From positions 352,001 to 416,000 of the forward strand of contig CAWFQK010000002.1 in NCBI GenBank assembly GCA_963817955.1: 64,000 nucleotides of DNA, written 5' to 3'. How positions within the stretch are numbered: the stretch's first letter is position 1; every line of letters begins with the position of its first letter. Below are positions 22,460 through 22,629 of this stretch, piece by piece. The stretch comes from an uncultured Gemmatimonadaceae bacterium. GTDB lineage: Bacteria > Gemmatimonadota > Gemmatimonadetes > Gemmatimonadales > Gemmatimonadaceae. The notes beneath the pieces were generated by a model. It was not told the DNA's origin. It was given only the letters and a program-made list of their open reading frames with translations, and did not search any database. The position numbers and the translations under genes are program-made.

Positions 22460-22502
22460 AAAAACAAAAAAGCCCGGTCCTCTCAGAGAGAGAGGACCGG
22501 GC
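22460..22502 (-). terminator. Attenuator terminator immediately upstream of metY
   Basis: 13-bp perfect stem GCCCGGTCCTCTC/GAGAGGACCGGGC, 5-nt loop, then U6-G-U5 on the minus strand. Confidence 0.88.
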
Positions 22503-22527
22503 CGGTATGCGAGCTCGTGTTGGCTCG

Positions 22528-22629
22528 CTAGTCGCCTGCGCGCGTGCGCGGCACCCGTCCGTCTCTCCCATAAGGAGGAACGCACATGAGGCACATACAC
22601 ATGGGCATCGCGAGCGGCGTGAGGCGCAT
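22528..22629 (-). CDS. Met/Cys-rich leader peptide MRLTPLAMPMCMCLMCVPPYGRDGRVPRTRAGD (33 aa)
   Basis: Hand-translated. Codons 8-16 contain 4 Met and 3 Cys. The 3' part is complementary to the terminator 5' arm. Confidence 0.78.
   Translation of the reverse strand: MRLTPLAMPMCMCLMCVPPYGRDGRVPRTRAGD

Follow-up and report, generated by a model that had tools for sequence, protein, structure and literature searches.

Why should the leader of a methionine-biosynthesis operon that already has a riboswitch-like element with its own terminator carry a second terminator, and directly in front of it a short open reading frame (ORF) dense in methionine (Met) and cysteine (Cys) codons? The question is raised by a stretch of 64,000 nucleotides (nt) from an uncultured Gemmatimonadaceae bacterium (GenBank assembly GCA_963817955.1, contig CAWFQK010000002.1, positions 352,001 to 416,000), henceforth the window, in which this ORF and terminator occupy positions 22460-22629 of the minus strand, upstream of metY, the gene for an O-acetylhomoserine sulfhydrylase, and a metX-like gene. 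Based on the sequence features, the alternative pairings and the recurrence of both that we observed in orthologous leaders, we propose that the element is likely to be a ribosome-mediated (leader-peptide) transcription attenuator for Met and Cys that controls metY-metX. The presence of such an attenuator behind an element of the SAM-II type would explain why there is a second terminator.

The codon cluster and the alternative pairings

The leader ORF (22629-22528; like the rest of the leader on the minus strand, with positions counted in the window) comprises 33 codons from the ATG at 22629 followed by a TAG stop (22530-22528), and reads MRLTPLAMPMCMCLMCVPPYGRDGRVPRTRAGD. The initial annotation, which was made from the letters of the window, had singled out a run in which seven of nine consecutive codons are Met or Cys, and exactly this run is found at codons 8-16 (22608-22582; ATG CCC ATG TGT ATG TGC CTC ATG TGC), giving a regulatory cluster of four Met and three Cys codons. 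Among the 109,236 stop-free nine-codon stretches in the six frames of the 64 kb it is the only one with seven Met/Cys codons, and across 5000 dinucleotide-preserving shuffles of the 234-nt leader the maximum was five in nine codons (attained seven times), with six reached in none of them. Met and Cys together account for 0.9% of the residues of MetY and 2.1% of those of the MetX-like protein.

The stop codon of the ORF stands 24 nt ahead of the first arm of terminator 2 (22504-22461), which consists of a stem (22503-22471) of 14 pairs, ten of them G-C, and a T run (22470-22461). The arms of this terminator are segments 3 and 4 of an arrangement in which segment 1 (22600-22573), overlapping the last Met/Cys codons, is the 5' strand of a 1:2 hairpin (-19.5 kcal/mol), and segment 2 (22569-22548) can pair either with segment 1 or, as an antiterminator, with the 5' arm of the terminator. 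The initial annotation had claimed a near-complementarity between codons 21-27 (GGGAGAGACGGACGGGTGCCG, 22569-22549) and the terminator 5' arm with its flank (CGGCCCGGTCCTCTCTCTC, 22504-22486); it is indeed present, and amounts to an 18-base-pair duplex with three 1-nt bulges and an energy of -30.4 kcal/mol, versus -30.6 kcal/mol for the terminator hairpin. The geometry of 2:3 versus 3:4 pairing likewise holds up, as the 1:2, 2:3 and 3:4 alternatives fold in the proposed manner, and in these predicted folds the three pairings are mutually exclusive, the regulatory codons falling within segment 1 or beside it. In the window 15-17 nt separate the last Met/Cys codon from the start of segment 2, and in most of the related loci described below about 10-17 nt do. 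The element therefore has the sequence-level characteristics of leader-peptide attenuators with the exception of a ribosome-binding site. A small hairpin (GCGAGC/GCUCGC, 22528-22509), whose first base is also the final one of the stop codon, may act as a spacer or pause element. A hairpin is also seen at the equivalent position in the related locus L001.

Recurrence of the leader module upstream of metY

Comparative information came from the DNA around 80 MetY relatives, the best of at least 595, at loci that were chosen without the leader as a query and are denoted below by handles such as L001. As a module we counted an ATG-initiated ORF that has 12-60 codons and ends 5-45 nt ahead of a terminator hairpin, no more than 600 nt upstream of metY. 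Under this rule at least four Met/Cys codons in nine occur in 8 of 79 forward regions and exactly three in seven more, whereas none of the 79 reverse-strand controls reaches three, so the Met/Cys-rich short ORFs for which the initial annotation had proposed to search related genomes do recur upstream of metY. The densest nine-codon runs hold seven Met/Cys codons in the window, five in L001, four in L002, six in L004, five in L005, eight in L016, six in L033 and eight in L060.

All seven Gemmatimonadota leaders (the window and L001-L006) combine a short ORF, a Met/Cys cluster and a terminator-type hairpin upstream of metY. The same design is found in Ignavibacteriota (L016, L008), Bacteroidota (L060) and Acidobacteriota (L033), with unrelated nucleotide and peptide sequences. 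The leader peptides read MPHSPRTLMLMCMCRLPYMGAGRAEARVKAPPAS in L001, ...AAMMCCRPPRGRRIGT in L002, MNTFALNLMCRISPCGSPQGETDRRVRARCTSA in L003, ...AACAVMCMCMVMATMATTMTMTMTRDG... in L004, MSCRRAMCCRMIPCSPRLGW... in L005 and MNSFTLTLICRPCPCGSPIGETDRRVRAWCTSA in L006, all from Gemmatimonadota, and MKTKNRNITTGKTAMCLCCMMMCMSSRKDAA in L016 (Ignavibacteriaceae), MTNFQYSMCPCMCCSIPYEGHMGLNQTRSR in L008 (Ignavibacteria), MRCMGMMMCMMMARTGLERSRPERR in L060 (Bacteroidota) and MKFTSTTSAPTMAMCMRMCSRPVSAWENNRMR in L033 (Acidobacteriaceae). The architecture is regular: in all 11 loci 18-40 nt separate the stop codon from the terminator, and the ORF has 31-34 codons in L001, L002, L003, L005, L006, L016 and L033. 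At least one Cys codon is present in each of the 11 ORFs and at least two in ten of them (L007 has one), and an internal Met codon is present in ten; Met is dominant in most members, as in L004 (nine Met and three Cys) and L060 (eight Met and two Cys). In L008 the hairpin after the ORF is, judged by eye, without a clear T run.

The pairing potential recurs with the codons. In shuffle tests of the 2:3 complementarity the z score is negative at all 11 loci, with a Fisher combined p of 6e-6 if segment 3 is taken as the terminator 5' arm plus its 5-nt flank, or 7e-9 if the loop is included. Hence both features on whose conservation in orthologous leaders the initial annotation had staked its reading, the codon cluster and the 2:3 complementarity, are recovered, the cluster in seven of seven Gemmatimonadota leaders and in other phyla. 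When transcripts are cut before the 3' arm of the terminator, the 5' arm pairs with about nt 46-117 of the ORF, engaging 12 of 14 arm bases in the window, 9 of 11 in L001, 7 of 8 in L002, 12 of 12 in L003, 11 of 12 in L004, 9 of 11 in L016, 10 of 14 in L033 and 11 of 13 in L060; in L006 (9 of 12) this happens only under a mask that mimics the stalled ribosome. When they are cut before segment 3, segment 2 folds onto the region that holds the Met/Cys codons in the window, L001, L003, L005, L006 and L016, and pairs beside the cluster in L002 and L033.

Further Met/Cys-rich runs in the 597,573 nt scanned are mostly Cys-only, off-frame readings of GC-rich genes and were set aside as chance occurrences, as were those at L033:34 and L051:6127, which stand outside any terminator or leader context. 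A (TGCAGC)n-type microsatellite at about 6670-6710 of L003, reading CSCSCS or CNCNCN according to frame, is unrelated to the attenuator.

A SAM-II-type element in series and the proposed mechanism

The initial annotation overlooked a SAM-II-type riboswitch with its own terminator (22754-22666) directly upstream of the leader ORF. The order on the minus strand, 5' to 3', is a tRNA-Leu gene, a promoter, the SAM-II-type element, terminator 1, the leader ORF, terminator 2, metY and the metX-like gene. The promoter, of sigma-70 type (TTGACA-18 nt-TATACT, 22795-22766, 11 of 12 hexamer positions matched), is the sole promoter-like site within 22300-23100 (mean 0.2 in shuffles); it lies just downstream of the tRNA-Leu (22903-22822, by tRNA detection) and is likely to be the start of the metY leader transcript. 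The leader ORF begins about 125 nt past it.

The 71-nt aptamer (22754-22684) aligns over its full length with RF00521 (SAM_alpha) at 33.1 bits (gathering score 36), with an E value of 3e-6 locally and 0.0012 for the window as a whole, which shows no further match apart from tRNA; against RF01726 the same positions score 30.7 bits versus a gathering score of 44. The alignment with RF00521, whose covariance model does not score the pseudoknot, shows P1 (CGUGGU/GCCACG), AUUUG, UUGCAGCC, AAACAAAU, CAAAU and GCUAAAA to be present. P1 covaries in L001 (CGAGG/CCUCG), and the positional orthologues of the element score 52.7 bits in L004, which is above gathering, and 30.8 bits in L001, suggesting that the Rfam threshold misses Gemmatimonadota members of the class. 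The putative expression platform is terminator 1 (22691-22659; hairpin 22691-22666, -17.9 kcal/mol, followed by a run of seven T). GGCGGC in its arm (22686-22681) can pair with GCCGCC in the aptamer loop (22734-22729) as an antiterminator, a helix into which the transcript folds when it is cut before the 3' arm of terminator 1; the corresponding places of L001 hold GCCGCG:CGCGGC, a compensatory change. Taken together, these features point to a putative OFF switch that would act by termination. As the SAM-II element and terminator 1 are followed by the leader ORF and terminator 2, the leader appears to be a tandem of two sensors, in which the attenuator would be the second sensor and not the sole regulator.

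In light of this arrangement we posit the following course of events. Transcription would start at the promoter 22795-22766. With S-adenosylmethionine (SAM) bound, the aptamer would end transcription at terminator 1, while in its absence the aptamer loop would pair with the terminator arm and the polymerase would continue. Ribosomes would then translate the 33-codon ORF. With charged tRNA-Met and tRNA-Cys in good supply, the ribosome would reach the stop codon, segment 2 would be either under translation or re-paired with segment 1 behind the ribosome, and 3:4 would form, ending transcription at about 22465. If either charged tRNA is scarce, the ribosome would stall on codons 8-16 and mask segment 1, so that segment 2, just past the edge of the stalled ribosome, could pair with segment 3 while segment 4 is yet to be synthesized, and metY-metX would be transcribed. 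Should the ORF go untranslated, 1:2 would form and termination would be the default. With the two sensors in series, expression would need low SAM together with a shortage of Met or Cys. The translation of the ORF, the stalling, the kinetics, the binding of SAM and the two-input logic are what we infer. MetY makes homocysteine by direct sulfhydrylation, and homocysteine can feed Cys through reverse transsulfuration, so a shortage of either amino acid would be a sensible inducer; the family to which MetY belongs (TIGR01326) includes bifunctional O-acetylserine sulfhydrylases.

The combination with a SAM sensor varies between loci. L016 (1786-2159) has the leader ORF and its terminator first, followed by a SAM-I riboswitch (72.4 bits, 1985-2113) with its own terminator, and in L008 (65-440) the leader ORF is likewise upstream of a SAM-I riboswitch (74.5 bits) with its own terminator; relative to the window, both the order and the SAM class differ in these two. 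In L003 and L006 the ORF module stands alone behind its own promoter, and in L033 and L060 it occurs without a detected riboswitch. Between promoter and leader ORF of L005 (2650-2780) a SAM-II variant was suspected by eye from a stretch ending in ...AGCUAAAG, and was rejected, as no SAM-II match appears there at E values up to 10. That stretch is structured and somewhat resembles a SAM-II 3' tail with an inserted hairpin; its best match is noise (Burkholderiales-2, E 0.12). In L004 the long spacer from terminator 1 to the leader ORF (about 2500-2640) consists, by eye, of short direct repeats with units like CGCGACGACCGCGAC.

Competing explanations, known systems and the gene neighborhood

Several observations weigh against the attenuator. 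The first concerns translation: no Shine-Dalgarno sequence is recognizable within 20 nt upstream of the leader ORF in the window, as the initial annotation had cautioned for the ATG at 22629, or in the ten other leaders, whereas metY has AGGAG, and translation of the leader is therefore assumed. This is the weakest point of the attenuator model, which needs Shine-Dalgarno-independent initiation. Secondly, in full-length equilibrium folds the terminator forms in most loci, and in the window it retains 14 of 14 pairs under every ribosome mask. In the masked folding that the initial annotation had envisaged, the terminator of the window thus prevails at full length, which implies that the switch must be kinetic, as in trp. 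In the truncated folds of most loci 2:3 also forms without any ribosome, so that 1:2 is not thermodynamically dominant once segment 3 exists. Thirdly, under the stricter definition of segment 3 (arm plus flank) the 2:3 complementarity of the window itself is not significant (z -1.65, p 0.076); it is so with the loop included (z -3.67, p 0.002), a definition picked post hoc. Column-wise covariation by RNAalifold in the four alignable Gemmatimonadota leaders is weak, with double changes at only 4 of 21 pairs and a covariation term of +0.19; there and in a six-sequence MAFFT alignment the terminator is recovered and the antiterminator is not predicted; since the pairing register varies between loci, we regard this measure as uninformative. 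Finally, the SAM-II match of the window is below the Rfam gathering score, the prevalence of the module is poorly sampled by 80 MetY relatives, the best of at least 595, and individual members are weak: L007 (Chloroflexota, ...SMCMPW...) and L041 are marginal cases, L003, L006 and L007 have only three Met/Cys codons in nine, L006 is without an internal Met, and the L005 hairpin is without a clear T run, failing the criterion of five T in eight and passing a looser one of four in eight.

In the window, L003 and L006 the leader ORF follows a pyrimidine-rich tract without a Shine-Dalgarno sequence, possibly a Shine-Dalgarno-independent landing site for ribosomes. In L001 three tandem pyrimidine-rich units (TCTCTGTTGTTTC-like, about 2085-2125) stand directly before the ORF start. 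In L033 (2745-2765) the ATG of the ORF is about 7 nt past an extended -10 element (TGnTATACT), and this leader mRNA may be leaderless, like those of the mycobacterial Cys small ORFs (sORFs). As to the start codon itself, a later ATG at 22608, suggested as an alternative by the initial annotation, is in frame with that at 22629, which leaves the start uncertain. A 59-codon extension to an ATG at 22707 was rejected: it would begin inside the SAM-II aptamer and cross terminator 1, and its length is matched by no orthologue. Since ORF length is 25-34 codons in ten of the 11 loci, the 33 codons from 22629 are favored over the start at 22707, with 22608 a possible start.

Among the competing explanations, the one that survives best, though we judge it improbable, is that terminator 2 is controlled by an untranslated structured RNA (a riboswitch, or an attenuator that binds a protein or a small RNA), the ORF and its AUG/UGY repeats being by-products and the AUGUGY repeats serving, for example, as a binding site or an anti-antiterminator strand. 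It would account for the missing Shine-Dalgarno sequence, for the strong structure of the leader (z -4.3), for the inclusion of the AUGUGY repeats in the 1:2 helix and for nucleotide conservation such as GGGAGAGACGGAC, which is common to the window, L003 and L006. It does not account for the fact that at 11 of 11 loci the clusters belong to an open frame which begins with ATG and whose stop precedes the terminator by 18-40 nt, in AT-rich (L016) as well as GC-rich genomes with unrelated nucleotide sequences; moreover, the codon orders vary (MCMC, MMCC, MCCRM, CLCCMMMCM, MGMMMCMMM), which leaves no common motif beyond the codons. Nor is any Rfam family matched at E <0.01 inside 22460-22629. The matches there to sX11, BcKCsr2 and anti-hemB (E 0.016-0.028) are far under their gathering scores, are driven by the terminator hairpin and were rejected as noise. 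T-boxes give no match at E up to 10 in 22380-22830, or at E up to 0.01 across the whole window.

Hardly more probable, and if anything a shade less so, is a role of the AUG cluster in initiation, whereby alternative starts or the supply of initiator tRNA would set ribosome loading, and translation as such, without stalling, would modulate the terminator. Three ATGs that share the frame and precede the end of the cluster (22629, 22608, 22602...) without a Shine-Dalgarno sequence would suit this explanation, as would the placement of the cluster at or near the ORF start in L007, L041 and L060 and the potentially leaderless mRNA of L033. Initiation cannot explain, however, why Cys codons accompany Met in 11 of 11 ORFs, with L006 having Cys only; most loci have the cluster 8-15 codons inside the ORF, and its distance from segment 2 agrees with a ribosome that has stalled during elongation.

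On the grounds that peptides rich in Met and Cys are able to bind soft metals and that the position of the ORF is conserved, one could imagine a functional small peptide, e.g. metal-binding or redox-active, that is merely co-transcribed ahead of metY; we consider it very unlikely. Even the closest pair, L003 and L006, differs by about eight residues versus three synonymous changes, while 33 codons, the frame and the Cys codons are kept. As replacements outnumber silent changes, the peptide itself is not under selection, which is the behavior of a leader peptide and not of a functional protein. Pfam and NCBIfam scans of the 11 peptides yield no significant match (the sole row, for L004, reaches 11.5 bits where the cut-off is 920, with E 0.06), and a terminator always separates the ORF from metY. 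That a chance ORF without regulatory meaning lies beside an ordinary terminator scarcely merits credence: strong duplexes do arise easily in GC-rich DNA, and the window-only test reaches no more than p 0.076, yet the shuffle and six-frame statistics of the cluster, its recurrence across phyla and the reverse-strand controls, none of which reaches three Met/Cys codons in nine, all speak against it.

Ribosome-mediated attenuation is the textbook mechanism for the trp, his, leu, thr, ilv and phe operons, and for Met biosynthesis the known controls are SAM riboswitches, T-boxes or protein repressors. The attenuator that we propose shares with the classical ones (trp, his, leu, thr, ilv and pheA of Proteobacteria; trp and ilvB of Actinobacteria) a leader ORF with codons for the pathway product, three exclusive pairings that end in an intrinsic terminator, regulatory codons in or just before segment 1 and a segment 2 about 15 nt after them. 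Unlike those, it would sense Met and Cys together, is without a Shine-Dalgarno sequence, has its stop after segment 2 and 24 nt before the terminator, stands in series with a SAM riboswitch and is hosted by Gemmatimonadota, Ignavibacteriota, Bacteroidota and Acidobacteriota. No Met-codon leader-peptide attenuator is described in what our searches of the literature (subscription papers and supplements not covered), Rfam, Pfam and NCBIfam brought up, and full-text literature searches of the same coverage likewise yielded no description of a riboswitch and leader peptide in tandem. In the available portions of two earlier surveys, Met is listed under control by S-box riboswitches, with no conserved RNA structure upstream of Actinobacteria Met operons (Seliverstov 2005, PMC1262725), and a Met-codon leader-peptide attenuator is not mentioned (Naville and Gautheret 2010, PMC2965389).

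Cys codons have been implicated in upstream regulation before. As far as the available text of the respective reports goes, the polycysteine leaderless sORFs of mycobacteria have Cys runs only and regulate translation in that they unmask a ribosome-binding site (Canestrari et al. 2020, bioRxiv 10.1101/834739), Cys-codon leader ORFs of mycobacteria also figure in Seliverstov 2005 (PMC1262725), and uORFC-8-2 of Rhodobacterales, with two Cys codons, precedes cysS and has an intrinsic terminator at its end (Brewer et al. 2021, PMC8632094). On these accounts the mycobacterial sORFs and uORFC-8-2 resemble our proposal in that ribosome pausing at upstream Cys codons relieves the repression of sulfur amino-acid genes. 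Compared with the mycobacterial sORFs as described there, the window has three Cys interleaved with four Met codons, an ORF far from its promoter and an intrinsic terminator behind it; and, measured against the Cys-codon leader ORFs of those texts generally, metY leaders are mostly Met-dominated, have metY as their target and would have intrinsic termination as their output.

A functional parallel, in the portions available, is the tandem of SAM-I riboswitch and T-box(Met) upstream of metX and metY, in which both sensors must permit read-through (Sherlock et al. 2022, PMC9481103); that text, to the extent available, has no occurrence of 'leader peptide' or 'attenuat'. The genes are the same there, as would be the logic of a SAM sensor joined to a sensor of tRNA-Met charging, although going by that description the charging sensor of the window would be a putative translated leader ORF in place of a T-box and would also read Cys, and the class of the SAM sensor is SAM-II for the window, SAM-I for L016. 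For the upstream half, the available text on S. meliloti metZ describes a SAM-II riboswitch with an intrinsic terminator (Scheuer et al. 2022, PMC9373788). Judged by this and by RF00521, the element of the window is alike in its full-model alignment, its terminator and the homocysteine-synthesis gene downstream, and unlike in scoring under gathering, in its Gemmatimonadota in place of an Alphaproteobacteria host and in being followed by a second attenuator of another type.

On balance, we lean slightly towards the view that Met/Cys-codon leader ORFs with terminators constitute an undescribed, phylogenetically broad class of sulfur-amino-acid attenuators, ranging over Gemmatimonadota, Ignavibacteriota, Bacteroidota, Acidobacteriota and possibly Chloroflexota. 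Such a class would supply the missing Met counterpart of the trp, his and leu attenuators, with two amino acids read by one peptide, and would represent a portable module that joins with different SAM riboswitch classes and on either side of them, following SAM-II in Gemmatimonadota and preceding SAM-I in Ignavibacteria, thereby forming natural two-input gates that integrate tRNA charging and SAM level. If the attenuator model holds for the window, Met would join, jointly with Cys, the amino acids sensed by leader peptides; the mechanism would extend to poorly studied phyla, in which most ORFs of this size go unannotated; and the riboswitch and leader-peptide attenuator in series would be a functional analogue of the tandem that couples SAM-I with T-box(Met). 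It also raises the question of how ribosomes are loaded reliably, and in coupling with RNA polymerase, on an ORF that is without a Shine-Dalgarno sequence and rich in potential AUG starts. The signature of at least four Met/Cys codons in nine, a stop 18-40 nt before a terminator and a met gene downstream is usable for genome-wide annotation.

The genes downstream accord with this assignment. Consistent with the sulfhydrylase operon named in the initial annotation, the product of metY (22445-21106, including the AGGAG Shine-Dalgarno sequence at 22445-22441 and the ATG at 22431) matches TIGR01326 (O-acetylhomoserine/O-acetylserine sulfhydrylase) with 641.6 bits against a cut-off of 495.1. Its nearest relatives, among the best 80 of at least 595, come from Gemmatimonadota genomes only, at 66-79% identity, which makes that phylum the most likely origin of the window. 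The metX-like homoserine O-acyltransferase gene (21109-20111) has TIGR01392 MetX as its best match (E 7e-82; 275 bits, under the equivalog cut-off of 500), and the 4-nt overlap of its start with the end of metY indicates that the two probably form one operon. Downstream of it a 249-codon ORF (20088-19339, minus strand) has no NCBIfam match, and a convergent gene for an HtrA/DegP-family protease (18409-19998, plus strand) overlaps nearly all of it; on both counts this ORF is probably not a gene, and the operon would consist of metY and metX only.

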